Assembly: GCA_963662545.2 (NCBI GenBank)
Contig: CAXXLL010000002.1
Coordinates: 2,272,001-2,336,000, forward strand
Length of the DNA: 64,000 nt
Reading direction: 5' to 3'
DNA from: Gammaproteobacteria bacterium
GTDB taxonomy: Bacteria; Pseudomonadota; Gammaproteobacteria; Ga0077536
The position numbers and the translations under genes are program-made. The number at the start of each line of letters is the position of its first letter. Within the stretch, counting starts at the first letter, position 1. Of the stretch, positions 2,986-59,593 are shown in pieces. The notes beneath the pieces were generated by a model. It saw only the letters and a program-made list of their open reading frames with translations, did no database searches and was not told where the DNA came from.

Positions 2986-4443
2986 TCAAACACGGTCGTA
3001 TTTGTCCTCGAAACGAACAATGTCATCCTCCCCTAGATAAGATCCCGACTGCACCTCAATCATCTCCAGCAAAATCGGTCCGCGATTTTCGAGCCGATGC
3101 TTTTCCCCGATAGGAATGTAAATTGATTCGTTCTCCGAGAGCAGAAACGTCTCATCGCCCCGCGTAACCGTCGCGGTCCCCGCAACTACGATCCAGTGCT
3201 CTGCGCGGTGACGGTGCAATTGCAGTGAAAGCGCGGCACCCGAATTAACGGTGATACGCTTGACCTGGAATCGCGGCCCCGCATCGATATTCTCATAGCT
3301 GCCCCAAGGCCGGTACACCCTTCGATGAGTCAGCTGCTCCACGCGATTCTGTCGAGAAAGCCAGTCGACGATACTTTTCACGTCCTGGGTACGGGTTTTG
3401 TCGGCCACCATTACTGAATCCGCGGTCTCCACCACCACCAAATTCTCGCAACCGATCGTCGCGACCAATCGGTGCTCGGCAAAGACGAGACTATCCTTAG
3501 AGTCAATTACGCAGACATCACCACGGATCACGTTGCCGTTAACATCCTTGGCTGACACGTCCCAAAGACTCGACCACGAGCCGACGTCGGTCCAGCCGAC
3601 GTCGAGCACGACCACCGCGGCATTCCCACCCGCCGCAGCCAGCGGCTCCATGACAGCATAGTCGATGGAATCGCTCGGGCAATTGGCAAATGCCTCCACT
3701 TCGAGTCTGAAGAACTCTCCGTCTTCGCGCGCCGCGTCGGTAGCGGCACTCGCGTAACGCGCAATGTCGGGGCAGTAATGTTCGGCTTGCGCCAGCCACA
3801 CTGACGCTTTCATCGCGAAGATCCCGCCATTCCAGAGGTAGCCGCCCGCGTTTAGGTAGCTTTGCGCGGTGGCTTCGTCCGGTTTCTCCCGAAAACTGCG
3901 CAGCGCGTAAACGGCCGCACCGTCACCGGATTCCAGAGCATCTCCGACCTCGATGTAACCGTAGCCCACCTCCGCATGTGTCGGGACCACGCCGAACATT
4001 ACAATGCGCCCAGCGATGGCCTCTGCGAGCGCGGCGCGGGCTGTGATATTGAACGCGGCGCGGTCTTTGATCAGATGATCCGCCGGCATCATCAACAGCA
4101 CGGGATCCTCGCCCTGCCGCACCGCGCGCCGCGCCGCGGAGGTCAGTGCGGGCGCAGTATTGCGGCCCTCGGGTTCGAGCATTATGGTCGCAGGCAGGCA
4201 GCCAACCTGCCGGGCCTGCTCGGCGACCAGAAAGCGATGCTCTTCGTTGCAGACCACAACCGGCGCCTCGACCCGCATATCTCCGGTATCCTCGAGCCGC
4301 GTAAGGGTTTGTTGCAGCAGCGACTCATTGCCACCCAATGCGAGGAACTGCTTCGGGTAGTACCCGCGGGATAGCGGCCACAAACGCGTGCCGCCACCGC
4401 CCGCGAGAACCACGGGCCAGATCGCGATCGTGGGATGATTCAT
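2986..4443 (-). CDS. manC: Mannose-1-phosphate guanylyltransferase / mannose-6-phosphate isomerase
   Basis: VVLAGGGGTRLWPLSR..PKQF, EPEGRNTAPA, SIDYAVME and C-terminal cupin RPWGSY..HRAEHW. Confidence 0.95.
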   Translation of the reverse strand: MNHPTIAIWPVVLAGGGGTRLWPLSRGYYPKQFLALGGNESLLQQTLTRLEDTGDMRVEAPVVVCNEEHRFLVAEQARQVGCLPATIMLEPEGRNTAPALTSAARRAVRQGEDPVLLMMPADHLIKDRAAFNITARAALAEAIAGRIVMFGVVPTHAEVGYGYIEVGDALESGDGAAVYALRSFREKPDEATAQSYLNAGGYLWNGGIFAMKASVWLAQAEHYCPDIARYASAATDAAREDGEFFRLEVEAFANCPSDSIDYAVMEPLAAAGGNAAVVVLDVGWTDVGSWSSLWDVSAKDVNGNVIRGDVCVIDSKDSLVFAEHRLVATIGCENLVVVETADSVMVADKTRTQDVKSIVDWLSRQNRVEQLTHRRVYRPWGSYENIDAGPRFQVKRITVNSGAALSLQLHRHRAEHWIVVAGTATVTRGDETFLLSENESIYIPIGEKHRLENRGPILLEMIEVQSGSYLGEDDIVRFEDKYDRV

Positions 4444-52370: not shown

Positions 52371-54073
52371 CTAGTGTGCATCCCTAAACGCGATGCGGTT
52401 GAAATAAAAAGGAAAATTTGTCGCTTAAGGGATCGAAACCTCCGGTAGGTCGTGATCTAATGGAACTTCAAACCTCTGATTTTCCACACAATCATCGACA
52501 CCACAGGAGGGGGAATGCGTCAGAAACGCACGGCCCAAGCGAGTATATACGAGCTGTTTGCTGACCATGACCTGGGGCGAGAGCTGCAGGGCATGTCCGA
52601 GTGGCTCGATGCTCACCCCAAGGTCCTCACGCCGGTCATGAACGATCTGTGTCGGCGGGGTTTGAAGCCCACCGGTCGACGCGGACTGTCGGCGGAGTCG
52701 GTGCTGCGCTGCGCGGTGCTCAAGCAGCACCGGCAATTGAGTTACGAGGAGCTGGCCTTTCACCTGCAGGACTCGGCGAGCTTTCAGGCCTTCGCCCGGT
52801 TGCCGGGTAATGAACGTCCGAAGAAGTCTGCCTTACAGCGGGTGGTCTCGGCGATCCAGGTATCGACGTGGGAGTCTATTCATCGCGCCCTGCTGGCGAC
52901 GGCGAAAGAGACGCGCATTGAGCCGGCACAGCGTGTACGGATTGATAGCACGGTAACGGACAGTGCCATCCACGCGCCGAGCGACAGTCATCTGCTGTGG
53001 GATGGCGTGCGTGTTGTGGTTCGTCTGCTCGCACAGGCGCGCGAGTTGCCTGGCGCGCCGGAGTTGTGCTTCGTGAACCACACTCGATTGGCGAAGAAGC
53101 GTGCGCGGGCGCTGTGGTATGCGCGTGGTGCGAAGCAACGCCAACGTCTGTATCGCGATTTGATTGGGGCGACGCGTTCAACCTTGGAAGCGGTAGCGAG
53201 GGTACGTGAGCAGCTGCTGAGCCCGGGCGTCACCGGCGTTGAACTGCCGGACTGGCTAGCGCAGGTAGCGCACTACGAAACACTTGTTCTGCAGGTGATT
53301 TCGCAAACTGAGCGGCGGGTGTTCGGCGGTGAGAAGGTCCCCGCGAGCGAGAAGTGCGTGAGCTTGTTCGAGCCGCATACCGACATCATCATAAAGGGTG
53401 CGCGCGACGTTCAGTACGGACACAAAATCAATCTGGCTTCGGGGCGCAGTGGCCTCATCCTCGACGTGGTCATCGAGCGAGGCAATCCGGTCGATAGTCA
53501 GCGCTTCATGCCGATGCTCGAACGGCATCGAACACACTACGGGACGATGCCACGACAGGTCGCCGCCGATGGCGGCTATGCGAGCCTCGACAATCTCCGG
53601 GCGGCGAAAGCAGAAGGCATCGAAGACGTTGCCTTCCACAAGAAGCGCGGGCTCGCGATCGCCGACATGGTCAAGAGTCAGTGGGTCTATCGACGCTTGC
53701 GCAACTTCCGCGCCGGCATCGAGGCCGGTATCTCCTGCCTGAAGCGTGCATACGGATTGGCACGTTGCACCTGGAAGAGCCTGCCGCACTTCGAAGCCTA
53801 CGTGTGGTCTTCTGTGGTCGCCTACAACCTCAGCCTGCTCGCGCGCTATCAACTCGAATAGCGACGTTCACTCGCACTAACTGACCTCCTCGATATCGTC
53901 GAACGGGCGACTTTGGGTTGCAGCGCTCTGCGGCCGGCGAACGTACTCACAATTACGCTCGAAGAGCCCTTCGACCCCCACCGAACCGCCGCTACCGCTC
54001 CAACAACCTACTTTCAACACCTCGATTTCTCCGTGCCCATCGAAGAAAATGCCTGTTTATGGACGGACACTAG
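52371..54073 (+). mobile_element. ISNCY-family insertion sequence, copy 2
   Basis: Same ends and same translated transposase as 5118-6820. Confidence 0.92.
52515..53861 (+). CDS. ISNCY-family transposase
   Basis: 448 aa, identical translation to 5262-6608. Confidence 0.92.
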   Translation: MRQKRTAQASIYELFADHDLGRELQGMSEWLDAHPKVLTPVMNDLCRRGLKPTGRRGLSAESVLRCAVLKQHRQLSYEELAFHLQDSASFQAFARLPGNERPKKSALQRVVSAIQVSTWESIHRALLATAKETRIEPAQRVRIDSTVTDSAIHAPSDSHLLWDGVRVVVRLLAQARELPGAPELCFVNHTRLAKKRARALWYARGAKQRQRLYRDLIGATRSTLEAVARVREQLLSPGVTGVELPDWLAQVAHYETLVLQVISQTERRVFGGEKVPASEKCVSLFEPHTDIIIKGARDVQYGHKINLASGRSGLILDVVIERGNPVDSQRFMPMLERHRTHYGTMPRQVAADGGYASLDNLRAAKAEGIEDVAFHKKRGLAIADMVKSQWVYRRLRNFRAGIEAGISCLKRAYGLARCTWKSLPHFEAYVWSSVVAYNLSLLARYQLE

Positions 54074-55424: not shown

Positions 55425-55494
55425 GCGCAGTCGGTCTAAGTCCACTGCGCTCCTCCCTTTGGTCCTTTACGGGTGCATTCGCACCCGTTTTTTT
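55425..55494 (+). ncRNA. Candidate small regulatory RNA (~70 nt)
   Basis: Starts at the predicted sigma54 +1. 5' hairpin GCGCAGT/ACTGCGC, single-stranded TCCTCCCTTT, terminator ACGGGTGC-ATTC-GCACCCGT-T6. Confidence 0.65.
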
Positions 55495-55555
55495 ACGCGA
55501 GTATGTACCTGAGTAAACCCTAGAAACAGGGCATTTTTGCGTCAAACAGCCGCCG

Positions 55556-55726
55556 TTACTCGTCGTCGTCTGACTTTTTCTTGTCGGAATCGGGCCAGCC
55601 GTCAGAAGGGCGTGGCTTCTTCAATGCCTCGCTTACGGCATCCTTCCAGTCACCATTGATCTTTACGCGTTCCTCTTTTGGGCCGCGCTTCGATATTTTT
55701 CCCGACTGATCTTTTTTTACTACCAT
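55556..55726 (-). CDS. Small basic/acidic protein (56 aa), passenger of the IS1595 element
   Basis: Read manually: MVVKKDQSGKISKRGPKEERVKINGDWKDAVSEALKKPRPSDGWPDSDKKKSDDDE. Below the ORF-track cutoff. Confidence 0.65.
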   Translation of the reverse strand: MVVKKDQSGKISKRGPKEERVKINGDWKDAVSEALKKPRPSDGWPDSDKKKSDDDE

Positions 55727-55791
55727 ATGTTGAGATCTGCAGTAAGAGCGTTTACTATCTCGTAGTAGTTAGTTTACTACATAGCAGTGAT

Positions 55792-56616
55792 ATGGCCAAA
55801 ATCAAAGCAGTGGACGAGTCCGGAGGCGCAAAATCAAAGCGGCGCGCGCGGCAGCGTTCTGGCACTGCGTTTCCCTACTATGGGCTCAGTCAATCCGTAG
55901 AGGTCGCGAACAAAATACGATCTCAAGGAGGGGGCGTATGTAGCCGTGACCAACTTGCACATTTCCTGAATTATTCTACTACTCGTAGCGGGGCTTACCT
56001 AACTCGGATGAGCGCCGCTAAGATGTTTGGCCTGATCTCGATGTCCGGAGAAACCGTGTCCATAACGGAGCGAGCGCAAAAAATTCTCGTCCCGGTACTT
56101 CCGTCAGACTCGAACGATGCCAAAATAGAAGCATTCCTGGCTGTGGAGCTTTTCCGCCGAGTTTACGATGATTTTTATGGCAAGAAACTGCCGCCGAAAG
56201 TTGGCACCAAAAACCTTTTCGAGAACATATACAAAATTACGCCCGACAAGATCCAGACAGCTTTACGCGCATTTTACGACTCTGCGGAGTTCGCAGGGTT
56301 TTTCCCGGATAACGGCAAAACGCGGCTTATTAAGCCCATCACAGCGGTAGAGCCCGGGACTTTAGAGCCAAAAGATGCCGTTGATGATGACCCTGGTACA
56401 GACCCGCCGGCAGATCCTCCTCCGGATAAACGAAAGCATGGCGGCAGTGGTAGTGGCGAGGGTCCACCGCCCGGTATACATACGGCAATAGTCGGTCTGC
56501 TACGCGAACTTCCGCCGGCCGGGTCCGATTGGCCCGCCACCAAGAAAGAACGATTTATGCAGGCATTCAGGGCGACTATTGATTTCATCTACCCGGAACA
56601 GGAGGAGCTACAATGA
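55792..56616 (+). CDS. Hypothetical protein, winged-helix-like N-terminus, Pro-rich linker (possibly DUF5343-related)
   Basis: 274-aa ORF with SRDQLAHFLNYSTTRSGAYLTRMSAAKMFGLI helix-turn-helix-wing pattern and C-terminal IHTAIVGLLRELPP..WP. Confidence 0.75.
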   Translation: MAKIKAVDESGGAKSKRRARQRSGTAFPYYGLSQSVEVANKIRSQGGGVCSRDQLAHFLNYSTTRSGAYLTRMSAAKMFGLISMSGETVSITERAQKILVPVLPSDSNDAKIEAFLAVELFRRVYDDFYGKKLPPKVGTKNLFENIYKITPDKIQTALRAFYDSAEFAGFFPDNGKTRLIKPITAVEPGTLEPKDAVDDDPGTDPPADPPPDKRKHGGSGSGEGPPPGIHTAIVGLLRELPPAGSDWPATKKERFMQAFRATIDFIYPEQEELQ

Positions 56617-56715
56617 GGAGGGTTTAAGGGCTGGCTCGGCGGCCCGGTCCAAGCGTCAGCGGTGGTTCAACTTGTGAGAAGCTTGCCACCGCTGACGGCC
56701 CGGGACTACATCCAT

Positions 56716-56816
56716 GCGGACGTGGTGGAATTGGCAGACACGCCGACTTTGGGGGTCGGTGGGGGTTGATCCTTTGACCAGGGGACCCCGTGCAGGTTCG
56801 AGTCCTGTCGTCCGTA
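56716..56816 (+). tRNA. Atypical tRNA: Leu-type body, TGG (Pro) anticodon, 32-nt variable region
   Basis: GCGGACG/CGTCCGT acceptor, D arm GTG-GAATTGGCAGA-CAC, anticodon arm CCGAC-TTTGGGG-GTCGG, T arm GCAGG-TTCGAGT-CCTGT, A73. An alternative 9-bp acceptor model spans 56714-56821 and ends in ACCA. Confidence 0.85.
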
Positions 56817-56854
56817 TACCATTAATCCGCTGCTGAAAGCTTGGCAGAAAAACG

Positions 56855-57856
56855 TCAGCCAAGCAATCGCCGAACCATCGGCAGATTAGTCGATACTGGT
56901 TCAGCATAGTAAAGCCGCTTCCCATTTGATGCCTTGATAGCCGCCGTAACCCTCTCTCCATCCTCAAGCTCGCGGCGGTTGAACCGAAATTCGAACTCAG
57001 CCATGTAGCGGTGCAGATGCTTACGGCTGACACTGTGATAGACGCCATTCAGACCGCGCTTGAAGATGCTGAAAAAGCCTTCTACCCGGTTCGTGGTTAC
57101 GTCGCCCCTGGCGTACTCGCGGGCCTTATGCTTCACCGTTTCGTGACCGCCCTTGAATTCCGCACCGATACCCCGATAACCACTGTGTTCATCGGTCATA
57201 ATCCGGGAATCGGGATGGACATGCTCCCGGATAGCGGCCTTTAACGTCTTACCAGTCACATCGGGTATAACCCTAGTGCGGACTTCGCCGCCACGTTGAA
57301 CCAGGGCGACGACGGGCTGTTTGTCGCCATGGCCCCGCTTGCTCTTACCTTTGTATCGGGGCTTTCCCCCAACGAAAGTTTCATCGACTTCAACGTCGCC
57401 GTTCAACTGGCCGTCATACGCTGGTGCCATAGCGAACCGGATACGGTGCAGCAGGAATAGGGCTGACTTGTAGGAAATTCCAGTCTGGCGGTGAATCTCA
57501 AGGGCCGACACGCCTTTCTTGGACGTGGCTGCACGCCAGAACCCGAAGCACCAATGACGCAGTTCAATCCGGCTGTCCTCAAACACGGTGCCGGTGCGGA
57601 CAGTGAATTGCGCTGTAAACTTAGCTCGCGCACAATCCCGGCAGCGCCAGCGAAAGTTCTTTTGCCGTGCGCCAGTCTTGTTATCTTGCATCTGGTAGAC
57701 ATTTTCGCTACCGCAACGGGGGCAGCAAGGATTCTCGCCCCAACGCTGCTTCTCTATGAACTCAACCGCAGCCTTCTCGTCGGCGCAGGCTTTTGGAACA
57801 GCCTTGATTACTGGGTCGTTCTTGGTGGAGCGGTTTTGAACTTTTGGCTTACTCAT
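56855..57856 (-). CDS. IS1595-family transposase
   Basis: Zinc ribbon CPRCGS..WRCRDC, FTVRTGTVFE, VEVDETFVGG, IMTDE..GY, TTNRVEGFFS, HLHRYMAEFEFRFN. Confidence 0.95.
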   Translation of the reverse strand: MSKPKVQNRSTKNDPVIKAVPKACADEKAAVEFIEKQRWGENPCCPRCGSENVYQMQDNKTGARQKNFRWRCRDCARAKFTAQFTVRTGTVFEDSRIELRHWCFGFWRAATSKKGVSALEIHRQTGISYKSALFLLHRIRFAMAPAYDGQLNGDVEVDETFVGGKPRYKGKSKRGHGDKQPVVALVQRGGEVRTRVIPDVTGKTLKAAIREHVHPDSRIMTDEHSGYRGIGAEFKGGHETVKHKAREYARGDVTTNRVEGFFSIFKRGLNGVYHSVSRKHLHRYMAEFEFRFNRRELEDGERVTAAIKASNGKRLYYAEPVSTNLPMVRRLLG

Positions 57857-57862
57857 ACATCA

Positions 57863-57891
57863 ATTGTATATACAAATTATCCTTTCGTCAA
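57863..57891 (-). promoter_or_regulatory. sigma70 promoter of leaderless transposase, overlapped by TGTATATACA palindrome
   Basis: Minus strand TTGACG-17 bp-TACAAT-6 nt-ATG. Confidence 0.7.
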
Positions 57892-58040
57892 GTATAAAGT
57901 TAATTACTATGTGCTTGTCGCTAAAGGGCGGTATCGCCGATCTGCAACAAATTTTTACATATATTGTTCCTTTTTAGTCTATATTTTGTATATACAGGGA
58001 TGTAGAATGTTGCGGAAATGACCTCAAGGATGTATATGCA

Positions 58041-58334
58041 TTGCCGCTAGAGATTAGTAACGGAGTACGTCGAAAGCTCGCCAGTAAAGAGCCGCCAGTC
58101 ACGGAGGCTGAAATTGTCGAATGCTTCGCGAATAGATTGAGTAAATACCTCTATGACGTTCGGGAGGATAACAAAACTAACCCGCCCACCAGATGGTTTG
58201 TTGCTGAGACAGATTATGGAAGAAAGCTCAAAGTTGTGTTCATGAGCATTGGGGACAATATCGTGATCAAAACAGCTTTTGAACCAAATCCTGATGAAAT
58301 ACGTATATACAACAAGTTCAGCCAGCCTACTTAG
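58041..58334 (+). CDS. Putative type II toxin (BrnT/DUF4258-like)
   Basis: 97 aa, VTEAEIVECF, RWFVAETDYGRKLKVVF..IVIKTAF. Upstream of an RHH antitoxin. Confidence 0.7.
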   Translation: MPLEISNGVRRKLASKEPPVTEAEIVECFANRLSKYLYDVREDNKTNPPTRWFVAETDYGRKLKVVFMSIGDNIVIKTAFEPNPDEIRIYNKFSQPT

Positions 58335-58357
58335 TAATCTCGGAGAGAGAGAACCAC

Positions 58358-58708
58358 ATGAATGAAACCACGAAAATTGAATCAACTGAGGAAGCATGGG
58401 AGTCCGGACAGCTCGGGCGCGACGAAGCTTACGCTCACGTTTTCGAGAATGAACAAGAAGACGCACTCGATAAAGCTCTAGAACTCCAAATGATCTCCAT
58501 ACGACTTCAAAAATCTCTCATAGAAGATTTCAAGCTAATTGCCAAATTGCATGGCCTTGGGTATCAGCCGCTCATGCGTCAGATATTGACGCGGTTTGCC
58601 GATTGCGAGAAAAAGCTACTTCTTAAAAAGTTCGTAGCTGACCAAGAAAAAATGGAGGCAGCGGAGCAATTGACCGATAATGAGGAACCAATTGCCTCAC
58701 ACGGATAG
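58358..58708 (+). CDS. CopG/BrnA-like ribbon-helix-helix antitoxin
   Basis: Acidic N-terminus (TEEAWE), then MISIRLQKSLIEDFKLIAKLHGLGYQPLMRQIL. Confidence 0.8.
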   Translation: MNETTKIESTEEAWESGQLGRDEAYAHVFENEQEDALDKALELQMISIRLQKSLIEDFKLIAKLHGLGYQPLMRQILTRFADCEKKLLLKKFVADQEKMEAAEQLTDNEEPIASHG

Positions 58709-58727
58709 CCTCAAACGATTTCAATAT

Positions 58728-58752
58728 AAACCCGCTTCGGCGGGTTTTTTTT
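58728..58752 (+). terminator. Intrinsic terminator
   Basis: AAACCCGC-TTCG-GCGGGTTTTTTT. Confidence 0.85.
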
Positions 58753-58804
58753 CACCGCCAGAAACCCGTCATAAGGGTTTACTCAAGTACATACTTCCGT
58801 TTTT

Positions 58805-59593
58805 TTACAAACCCGCTTTTTTCGCCGCCTCCCACAAGCGGTCCAACCACTCGAGATCCGCAGACCCGGGCGACGAGCCCTGCGCCCGCAGTTCGGCCTC
58901 CACGTGCCTGAACCGCCGTTCGAATTTCCGGTTCGCGGCACGTAAAGCGGCCTCCGGATCACAACCGAGGTGGCGTGCGACGTTAACCATCGCAAACAGC
59001 AAGTCGCCTAATTCTTCGTGGATCGCAGCGACGTTCGACTGCCCCATGGCGTCCTCGAGTTCCGCGGTTTCTTCGCCAAGCTTAGCCCAGGGGCCAGCCA
59101 CATCCGGCCAGTCAAACCCGACCCTGGCGGCCCGCTTCTGCAGCTTTAGGGCGCGCGTGAGCGCGGGGAAATTGACGGGCACCTCGTCGAGTTCGCTGAA
59201 CGTATCGCGATCGCGCCGGGACGCGCGCTCCGTCGCCTTCTGCATTTCCCACTGTTTGGCAACGGCCGTCGCATCGCTTGCGCCACCGTCCTCGAATACG
59301 TGGGGATGCCGTCTCAAGAGCTTCCGCTCCAATTCGCCTATTACCTCGTCGATTGAGAAACGGCCCTCCTCCTCGGCTAACTGGCAATAGAAAATGACCT
59401 GAAACAGAAGATCGCCTAATTCCGAGGGTAACTCCTCCAGACGCCCGGATTCGATGACGTCCGCCACCTCGAAAGCCTCTTCCAAGGTATGCGCTACGAT
59501 CGATTTAAACGTCTGTTCCCGGTCCCAGGGACAGCCGCCATCGGGCGCGCGCAATGCCCGCATCAGGTCACGCAGTGTTTGGAGATTCGACAT
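58805..59593 (-). CDS. mazG: Nucleoside triphosphate pyrophosphohydrolase
   Basis: LRAPDGGCPWDREQT, EEAFEV, ELGDLLFQV, RRHPHVF, GFDW, second EELGDLLF. Confidence 0.96.
   Translation of the reverse strand: MSNLQTLRDLMRALRAPDGGCPWDREQTFKSIVAHTLEEAFEVADVIESGRLEELPSELGDLLFQVIFYCQLAEEEGRFSIDEVIGELERKLLRRHPHVFEDGGASDATAVAKQWEMQKATERASRRDRDTFSELDEVPVNFPALTRALKLQKRAARVGFDWPDVAGPWAKLGEETAELEDAMGQSNVAAIHEELGDLLFAMVNVARHLGCDPEAALRAANRKFERRFRHVEAELRAQGSSPGSADLEWLDRLWEAAKKAGL

Follow-up and report, generated by a model that had tools for sequence, protein, structure and literature searches.

A transfer RNA with a leucine-type body and a proline anticodon inside an IS1595-type element, and matching codons in the element's transposase

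What is a transfer RNA (tRNA) with the body of a tRNA-Leu and the anticodon of a tRNA-Pro doing inside an insertion sequence (IS)? The question is raised by a 64,000-nucleotide stretch of a gammaproteobacterial contig (CAXXLL010000002.1, positions 2,272,001 to 2,336,000; hereafter the window), in which such a gene is enclosed by a 3,302-bp element of the IS1595 type at 55497-58798. We found that this tRNA is a real, selected and conserved piece of mobile cargo that combines a leucine-type body with a proline anticodon. The explanation that we favor, with a probability of roughly 0.6, is that the tRNA would be charged with leucine and would decode dedicated CCA codons in the element's own transposase. 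We see about even odds for a fuller version, a private code in which the element's tRNA(UGG) would make designated CCA codons mean leucine and so tune the transposase, with errors in host proteins; the spread over several phyla and phage-like sequences, and the way in which the codons track the anticodon, belong to this version. What is new is that matching codons stand at two fixed sites of the element's own transposase, one of them the position of a leucine that is conserved in the family.

The tRNA gene matches the Rfam model RF00005 over its full length (model positions 1-71; 45.8 bits against a gathering score of 29; E = 1.4e-6 in the window). Among 48 RF00005 matches in the organism's own genome this one is the lowest, the next lowest being a tRNA-Leu(GAG) with 48.4 bits. 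The acceptor stem has 7 bp, starting with the pair G1.U72. The D stem has 3 bp plus G13.A22, within a leucine-type D arm (GUGG-AAUUGGCAG-ACAC), the anticodon stem CCGAC/GUCGG closes the loop UUUGGGG, and the T arm is GCAGG-UUCGAGU-CCUGU (T stem GCAGG/CCUGU). The 3′ tail of the window copy, AUACCA, is non-canonical. A reading made from the sequence alone had proposed a cloverleaf tRNA at 56714-56821 inside an IS1595 element, with a 32-nt variable region and the loop TT-TGG-GG. The Rfam score, the covariation among homologs and the inverted repeats of the element bear out the first of these claims, and the variable region and the loop are as it gave them.

ARAGORN called no tRNA in the window, nor in the candidate stretch submitted alone; the great length of the variable region is the probable reason. 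When the single sequence is folded, the structure of lowest energy differs from the cloverleaf (z = -1.45; 16 of 200 shuffles fold equally well). Given that this thermodynamic result is not significant, the case for the cloverleaf rests on the covariance model and on homologs. Stem covariation, which the sequence-only reading had proposed to look for, is present: in an alignment of eight homologs, 192 of 192 stem cells are paired and 21 of 24 pairs have changed on both sides, a value that none of 500 shuffles reached, and slid controls were 37-53% paired. The 7-bp acceptor stem and the 5-bp T stem both covary. The bases U8, A14, A15, G18, G19 and U48, the T-loop bases and the anticodon bases U34, G35 and G36 are invariant in this alignment.

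Which amino acid does the body belong to? Leucine identity, as known from E. coli, is marked by a class II long variable arm, A73, the pair A15:U48 and a D loop laid out around G18G19, and leucyl-tRNA synthetase (LeuRS) as a rule ignores the anticodon. All of these marks are found in the candidate, and its anticodon is UGG in place of the leucine anticodons NAG or NAA. Bacterial tRNA-Pro has a class I body with a short variable loop and C1:G72, and the host's three tRNA-Pro genes have C1:G72 and short loops. The candidate has G1.U72 and the 32-nt variable region, and the tRNA-Pro elements that it does contain are G35, G36 and A73. We also ranked the tRNAs of the own genome with a covariance model built from eight family tRNA sequences (R1). 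The candidate scored 97.9 bits, followed by the five tRNA-Leu (81.8, 81.4, 75.5, 70.5 and 64.5); tRNA-Ser (53) and the host tRNA-Pro(UGG) (43.5) both lie below all tRNA-Leu. Since R1 was built from the family itself, the informative part is the ranking of the host tRNAs. On these sequence marks the body is best read as leucine-type, in agreement with the sequence-only reading, and the same marks recur in the family, with A73 in 70 of 71 metagenomic members and A15 and U48 fixed in the eight aligned homologs. Judged by the same marks, the host LeuRS would be expected to charge the tRNA with leucine.

The own genome (5.58 Mb in 3 contigs) has a full tRNA set, with tRNA-Pro genes for UGG, CGG and GGG and the five tRNA-Leu, all with an encoded CCA end, so the candidate is an extra tRNA. 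The element and its tRNA are single-copy in this genome, which means that paralogs do not define the element's ends. Two side observations concern other tRNA calls in the own genome. Two identical tRNA-Ser(UGA) genes lie inverted 15 kb apart (G000:C3:5883-5972 on the plus strand and C3:20983-21072 on the minus strand) and may flank an invertible or acquired segment. ARAGORN also called a 90-nt “tRNA-Glu” (G000:C2:142495-142584) and a 95-nt tRNA with a two-base anticodon (C3:2603809-2603903), both of which are likely false positives because they are absent from the 48 Rfam matches.

The tRNA is conserved beyond this genome. Among 81 genomes of the same family, the own one included, BLAST found it in one other, a genome of the same genus (G051), where the tRNA is 79% identical and the homology spans the upstream hairpin, the tRNA and the transposase. 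The G051 anticodon is UGG, and base changes in the D, anticodon, T and variable-arm stems are compensated on the opposite strand. When genome_contigs was searched with the transposase, 13 loci were recovered; they come from Gammaproteobacteria, Planctomycetota and Gemmatimonadota, and all 13 have a tRNA with an NGG anticodon near the transposase. In 12 of them R1 recognizes a leucine-type class II tRNA, with UGG in 11 and AGG in one (L024); Rfam finds the leucine-type tRNA in 7 of the 13. At the remaining locus, L030, the tRNA(UGG) about 0.9 kb upstream of the transposase (L030:81-155) is of class I, with C1:G72 and A73; it could be a host tRNA-Pro or cargo, and the contig ends there. Inverted repeats that share the end GGAAGTATGTACTT enclose the tRNA and the transposase in the window and in 8 of the 13 loci, and elements with paired ends of this kind measure 2.4-3.7 kb; four further loci have one end only. 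The tRNA lies inside the element in different arrangements, namely convergent downstream of the transposase, divergent upstream of it or upstream on the same strand.

We extended the search with a pattern in which an NGG anticodon is preceded by Y32 and Y33 and followed by R37, the T loop and the leucine-type bases of the D arm are fixed, and short variable loops are excluded. In viral_contigs it gave 24 matches, with 19 loci scoring at least 60 bits with R1, and an IS1595-like transposase occurs at 9 of the 21 viral loci examined. In metagenome_contigs there were at least 120 matches; among those listed, R1 matches 74 of the first 80 loci and 40 of 40 others, and an IS1595-like transposase lies on the same contig in 34 of 73 cases. 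The anticodons of the 71 unique tRNAs in the first batch listed are UGG (57), AGG (7), GGG (6) and CGG (1), where the NGG form was demanded by the search pattern. In the same 71, A73 occurs in 70, G1:C72 in 64, C33 in 17 and an encoded CCA in 17, and the variable regions range from 13 to 34 nt. Metagenome contigs with at least 1.5 kb on both sides carry the transposase in 10 of 16 cases, and one more has the end motif.

The variable arm follows a recurrent plan. In the window, in G051 and in L023, L029 and L060, its 5′ half consists of an outer stem, a 3-nt bulge, GA and an inner stem leading to the loop, and its 3′ half of the inner stem, GA and the outer stem, a layout whose opposed GA pairs we take to fit the K-turn consensus. 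The second common type in the family has a 4-nt A..A bulge on the 3′ strand instead. The long arm together with C33 might damp decoding. For other mistranslating tRNAs found in nature, G33 or A33 has been proposed to have such an effect (PMC11415595).

The sequence-only reading had further described a 9/5 fold, in which the acceptor stem extends to 9 bp and is followed by ACCA. This extension exists in the window copy, and it is not a conserved feature. The G051 tRNA has a 7-bp acceptor stem followed directly by ACCA, with the two bases before G1 (-1 and -2) unable to pair, and both extra pairs are possible in 24 of 100 members. We therefore rejected the 9-bp acceptor.

Some related elements carry two such genes. 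Tandem leucine-type tRNAs(UGG) occur at L100:3899-3999 and 4007-4091 and at L177:1206-1297 and 1498-1583, one L177 copy having a damaged T loop. In L166, two tandem leucine-type tRNAs on the plus strand (715-813 and 897-986) lie beside an IS1595-like transposase, one with the anticodon CGA, for the serine codon UCG, and the other with UGG. The CGA tRNA points to the existence of further leucine-body tRNAs that have G at position 35.

Do the anticodons correspond to anything in the elements that carry them? We aligned 37 tRNA-linked transposases with eight IS1595 copies of the own genome that lack a tRNA of this kind. Two columns in which the tRNA-linked group has an apparent proline stand out, within the motifs A-[ILV]-P-x-A-C-x-D-E and GKRLxYxxP; they correspond to residues 21 and 320 of the window's transposase. 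In 30 transposases linked to a UGG tRNA, these two columns have CCA 44 times, CCT twice and CCG or CCC never. The remaining proline codons of the same 30 genes (n = 290) are CCG 120, CCA 82, CCC 67 and CCT 21, and the enrichment of CCA at the two columns has a Fisher p of 3.6e-19, ignoring kinship. A second batch has CCA 17 times and CCT once at the C-terminal site, and CCA in 8 of 8 cases at the N-terminal site where the motif was found; three viral UGG loci also have CCA. For comparison, CCA makes up 10.6% of host proline codons, and 5 of 12 proline codons in the window's transposase.

The codon changes when the anticodon does. Transposases linked to an AGG tRNA have CCT at the C-terminal site in 4 of 4 cases; at the N-terminal site, L024 and L114 have CCT, and L128 and L136 do not have proline. 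The GGG-linked transposase of L091 has CCT at both sites, and L038, a relative of L128 with a poor anticodon stem, has CCT. In a maximum-likelihood tree there are four anticodon changes, and the codon switches in the same way in 3 of 3 independent contrasts. The sequence-only reading had proposed that the tRNA, if expressed, would put leucine at proline codons. This covariation between codon and anticodon in the linked transposase supports the part of that proposal that concerns use in translation, and it gives the mistranslation a specific target that the reading had not foreseen. The part that concerns charging stands as a prediction from the identity marks.

Which amino acid would then be meant at the two sites? 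Comparison with related transposases suggests that it is likely leucine. Among 150 representatives of clusters at 50% identity, residue 320 is leucine in 56 and proline in 27, is absent in 28, and is alanine, serine, valine or another residue in the rest. It is leucine in 54 of the 88 representatives that have no proline at either special site. The six IS1595 copies of the own genome that can be aligned at this position, all of them without a tRNA of this kind, have leucine as well. Two tRNA-linked relatives have a true leucine at this position, the basal lineage L099 (codon CTA) and L042. The changes from CTA to CCA and from UAG to UGG are one transition each. Among the 120 closest homologs (66-89% identity), residue 21 is proline in 112, and residue 320 is proline in 90 by the strict motif and in several more by eye. 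The exceptions at residue 320 include serine (7), valine (5), leucine (2) and isoleucine (1).

We then considered each CCA codon of the window's transposase. These encode residues 4, 15, 21, 145 and 320, and the relatives that are not of the P type have proline at these positions in 0/21, 5/67, 0/76, 8/88 and 0/88 cases, respectively, where the zeros at residues 21 and 320 follow from the definition of that group. Residue 15 is most often leucine. At residues 43, 46, 166, 181, 198 and 215, which have the codons CCC or CCT, proline is the commonest residue of the family. In a predicted structure of the transposase (mean pLDDT 92.4), residue 21 lies within a helix formed by residues 15-25 and residue 320 in a non-helical tail; as a weak hint from this model, leucine would fit the helix better than proline.

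The best-placed alternative, unlikely in our view and still a serious contender, is that the tRNA decodes the same dedicated CCA codons charged with proline, through G35, G36 and A73, so that residues 21 and 320 would really be proline. The element would then simply supply a tRNA that fits codons seldom used in GC-rich hosts, as phages do with theirs. A match between codon and anticodon says nothing about the amino acid that is inserted. Under proline charging there is no explanation for the fact that different phyla have kept a class II, leucine-type body with A73 and G1:C72, or that the matching codon is concentrated at a few positions while the prolines that the family conserves are encoded by CCC or CCG. 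A tRNA-Pro(UGG) is also already needed by every host examined, and the own genome has one. Finally, residue 320 is the position of the family's conserved leucine, and valine, leucine or isoleucine stands there in 8 of the 120 closest homologs.

Several observations weigh against leucine, or against the proposed link between codon and tRNA, and some of them favor charging with proline. The mark C1:G72 of tRNA-Pro is present in 4 of the 71 metagenomic tRNAs. L030 has CCA at both transposase sites, and its only nearby tRNA(UGG) is the class I, proline-like one. Eleven UGG-linked genes use CCA at one column where the own-genome controls have proline. Among the 30 UGG-linked transposases, nine have neither proline nor leucine at the C-terminal site (serine 3, glutamine 2, threonine 1, lysine 1, and two gaps or truncations). 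The three conserved prolines of a tiny protein that the elements also encode have CCA in 19, 7 and 5 of 41 sequences, a mixture of codons without a rule, and heavy insertion of leucine would damage this protein. When CCA is translated as leucine, the score for the NCBIfam model of IS1595 transposases falls by 1.2-3.5 bits in 5 of 5 transposases; this model spans residues 95-295 only and covers neither residue 21 nor residue 320, and the drop means that not all CCA codons fit leucine. In the transposase of L166, the codon TCG that matches the CGA tRNA occurs once, at a column that is not leucine, and we found no recoded leucine site there. The independent-lineage sign test for the covariation between codon and anticodon gives p = 0.25; with only three independent pairs, it cannot be significant.

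If the tRNA is charged with leucine, as we favor, we envisage the following sequence of events. The tRNA would probably be transcribed together with the upstream passenger gene, fold into a normal L shape and then be charged by the host LeuRS. It would be used on the ribosome, where the selected targets would be a few dedicated CCA codons of the transposase, chiefly those of residues 21 and 320; the latter would stand in place of the leucine in the C-terminal family motif RLxY(R/K)xL. A fully “correct” transposase would be made only when the element's tRNA outcompetes the host tRNA-Pro at these codons, and the element would presumably benefit. The tRNA would incidentally insert leucine at host CCA codons, at some low rate.

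The available RNA data offer a hint that the tRNA is transcribed, possibly from a promoter-like site at 55730-55758. In RNA libraries of three runs from two studies, the tRNA is covered by fully identical contigs (56473-56813, 56700-56910 and 56591-56832), and one of them runs continuously from the end of the upstream open reading frame (ORF) through the hairpin into the tRNA. Such contigs can contain DNA, which counts against the proposal, and they show no ends. None of them lies on the transposase body (56912-57903), which is no evidence of silence. A promoter scan returned four sites against a chance expectation of 2.9; the stretch immediately before the tRNA has none of them.

A further explanation, which we regard as quite improbable, makes the tRNA a general mistranslating or stress cargo that changes proline to leucine throughout the proteome, the CCA sites of the transposase being a by-product. 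It agrees with the fact that 5 of the 16 well-flanked metagenome loci with a leucine-type NGG tRNA have neither an IS1595 transposase nor its end motif, with the phage tRNA array and the neighbors of other IS types described next, and with the frequency of toxin-antitoxin passengers, which are also found near allo-tRNAs. It does not explain why CCA is nearly exclusive at two fixed columns, or why CCT appears there with AGG and GGG anticodons.

As observations in their own right, a leucine-type tRNA(UGG) occurs within a phage-like array of several tRNA genes (L052:1694-1777 and L054:8477-8560; viral, 46% GC), in stretches that have no IS1595 transposase. Leucine-type NGG tRNAs also adjoin an IS1-like transposase (tRNA L080:2101-2184, transposase L080:2809-3768) and an IS4/IS5-like DDE_Tnp_1 transposase with a SWIM finger (tRNA L073:1684-1765, transposase L073:2105-3394). 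Other IS families may therefore carry the same kind of tRNA, and the tRNA class is wider than this IS group.

Slightly more improbable still is a role outside translation, in which the RNA would act as a decoy for anticodon nucleases, regulate the convergent transposase gene or be antisense to it, or serve as an integration target. Selection for an invariant anticodon could also come from a protein that recognizes the anticodon loop. In the window, the tRNA gene converges on the 3′ end of the transposase gene, 38 nt from its stop codon, and C33 replaces U33 in 17 of the 71 metagenomic tRNAs. Yet the triplets that match the anticodon stand in frame at fixed residues of the transposase, the tRNA does not keep one position or orientation toward the transposase in all elements, and all bases that make the tertiary interactions of a translating tRNA are conserved. 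The tRNA also lies inside the element and not at its junction. The decoy and the integration target, both raised by the sequence-only reading, have gained no support.

The last possibility, also raised there, of a singleton tRNA-Leu(UAG) pseudogene that is decaying with a chance change of A35 to G, can practically be dismissed: UGG is one transition from UAG, and the window copy has G1.U72 and the AUACCA tail, but every homolog examined across Gammaproteobacteria, Planctomycetota and Gemmatimonadota has NGG and not UAG, with fully compensated stems.

We now describe the element as a whole (Table 1). Its transposase matches PF12762 (DDE_Tnp_IS1595; 150.9 bits), PF12760 (Zn_ribbon_IS1595; 41 bits) and NCBIfam NF033547 (199.4 bits). 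With a DDE transposase and a zinc ribbon, terminal inverted repeats and a flanking target duplication, it belongs to the IS1595 family. The 25-nt ends match at 21 of 22 core bases. The flanking direct repeat is perfect over 10 bp, and its exact length is ambiguous owing to a run of T; the usual target duplication of the IS1595 family is 8 bp. The element lies in the T-tract of a host terminator between folE2 and mazG.

Table 1. The element and its tRNA, with positions counted from the first nucleotide of the window
Feature	Position	Strand	Basis
tRNA gene, leucine-type class II body, 7/5 cloverleaf, A73 at 56816	56716-56816	+	Rfam RF00005 (match over this span), R1, covariation
Anticodon TGG (UGG; proline codon CCA) in loop UUUGGGG	56750-56752	+	Sequence, Rfam; U34 G35 G36 invariant in homologs
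Long variable arm: GGGG/CCCC outer stem, GUU bulge, GA opposite GA, UCC/GGG inner stem	56761-56789	+	
CCA codon, transposase residue 21, motif AVPKACADE; candidate recoded site	57794-57796	-	
CCA codon, transposase residue 320, motif GKRLYYAEP, family leucine position; candidate recoded site	56897-56899	-	
IS1595-family transposase, 333 aa	56855-57856	-	Pfam, NCBIfam
Hairpin, 12 bp, about 18 nt upstream of the tRNA	56654-56697	+	
Left terminal inverted repeat GCGAGTATGTACCTGAGTAAACCCT	55497-55521		
Right terminal inverted repeat, reverse complement GGAAGTATGTACTTGAGTAAACCCT	58774-58798		
Direct repeat GTTTTTTTAC, left copy, in T-tract of host terminator	55487-55496		
Direct repeat GTTTTTTTAC, right copy	58799-58808		
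Tiny basic protein, 56 aa, motif GPK..E.VKI.G.W..AV..ALKK.RP..GWP	55556-55726	-	
Passenger ORF, no family assigned, start probably ATG near 55789	55678-56616	+	
Two small passenger ORFs, 97 and 116 aa	58041-58334 and 58358-58708	+	

A hairpin also lies 5-20 nt upstream of the tRNA in homologous loci. The gene for the tiny basic protein adjoins the left inverted repeat and is conserved in this IS group, with tblastn matches in 43 of 157 loci. Homologs of the larger passenger ORF adjoin the tRNA in L024 and L028; a check of codons in this family (window, L024 and L028) was uninformative because the sequences are too divergent. The two small ORFs between 58041 and 58708 are probably a toxin-antitoxin pair. 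The second has a weak match to CopG antitoxins, at 22 bits and thus below the Pfam cut-off, and a PADLOC scan of the passengers gave only weak helix-turn-helix matches. In the related elements L025, L026, L027 and L035, pairs of a Gp49/HigB-like protein and a helix-turn-helix protein take the place of these small ORFs. A second, unrelated transposase (DDE_Tnp_1 with DUF772, 448 aa) lies at 52515-53861 on the plus strand, about 1.6 kb upstream of the element and beyond folE2.

Few natural tRNAs deliberately misread sense codons, and what purpose they serve is mostly obscure. For the tRNA described here there is a candidate purpose that can be tested: the transposase gene is small, and leucine is predicted at two fixed codons in it, those of residues 21 and 320. 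If this is true, a transposon reassigns a sense codon for its own gene. Transposition would be controlled in a new way, and the proteomes of environmental bacteria would have a new source of mistranslation. The database sequences of transposases in this clade would then be mistranslated at these sites. ARAGORN misses such genes, and naming by anticodon would label them as tRNA-Pro.

How does this tRNA compare with known systems? A full-text literature search, with supplements excluded, found no report of an insertion sequence carrying a tRNA that joins a proline anticodon to a leucine-type body, and no description of tRNA cargo for the IS1595 family. The candidate shares with bacterial tRNA-Leu the 7/5 cloverleaf, the long variable arm, the D loop GGAAUUGG.AGAC, A14, A15, G18G19, U48 and A73, as well as the start G1:C72 / C2:G71 in most family members, and the host tRNA-Leu are its nearest relatives. 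Unlike tRNA-Leu, it has an NGG anticodon, is borne by a transposon and is extra to a full host set. Many family members also have a variable arm, of up to 34 nt, that is two to three times as long as usual.

Phage suppressor tRNAs accompany recoded stop codons in phage late genes. The present case would resemble them in that the tRNA of a mobile element changes the meaning of a codon in the element's own genes. However, phage suppressors act on stop codons, whereas here the target would be a sense codon of an IS transposase, in competition with the host tRNA-Pro. The IS1595 family includes transporter insertion sequences with passenger genes. Like these, our element combines inverted repeats, a target duplication and passengers with a DDE transposase that has a zinc ribbon at its N terminus, but the element's conserved passengers are a tRNA and a tiny basic protein.

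The tRNA-ProX/ProRSx systems of Streptomyces and Kitasatospora are natural mistranslating tRNAs (PMC11415595, accessible part, for this and the following points). Like the present family, tRNA-ProX is conserved and natural and joins the body of a tRNA for one amino acid to the anticodon for another, and position 33 is unusual in both, with A33 in tRNA-ProX and C33 in part of our family (17 of 71). It goes in the opposite direction, with a proline body on alanine, asparagine or threonine anticodons, and it has a dedicated synthetase; in that part of the paper, it is not reported on an insertion sequence and has no known dedicated target codons.

The allo-tRNAs of Acidobacteria (PMC5389517, accessible part) similarly have long variable arms and mismatched anticodons and occur near toxin-antitoxin and transposon-related genes, and some of them are active missense suppressors in E. 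coli. The anticodon UGG is absent from the main text of that paper, and its supplements, which lay outside the search, might list such tRNAs. Allo-tRNAs have a 12-bp branch with a lengthened acceptor stem and a shortened T stem, a combination that the candidate does not have. They are of the 8/4 or 9/3 type and mostly of serine identity (accessible part of PMC5389517), whereas the family described here has the 7/5 fold and a body that reads as leucine-type.

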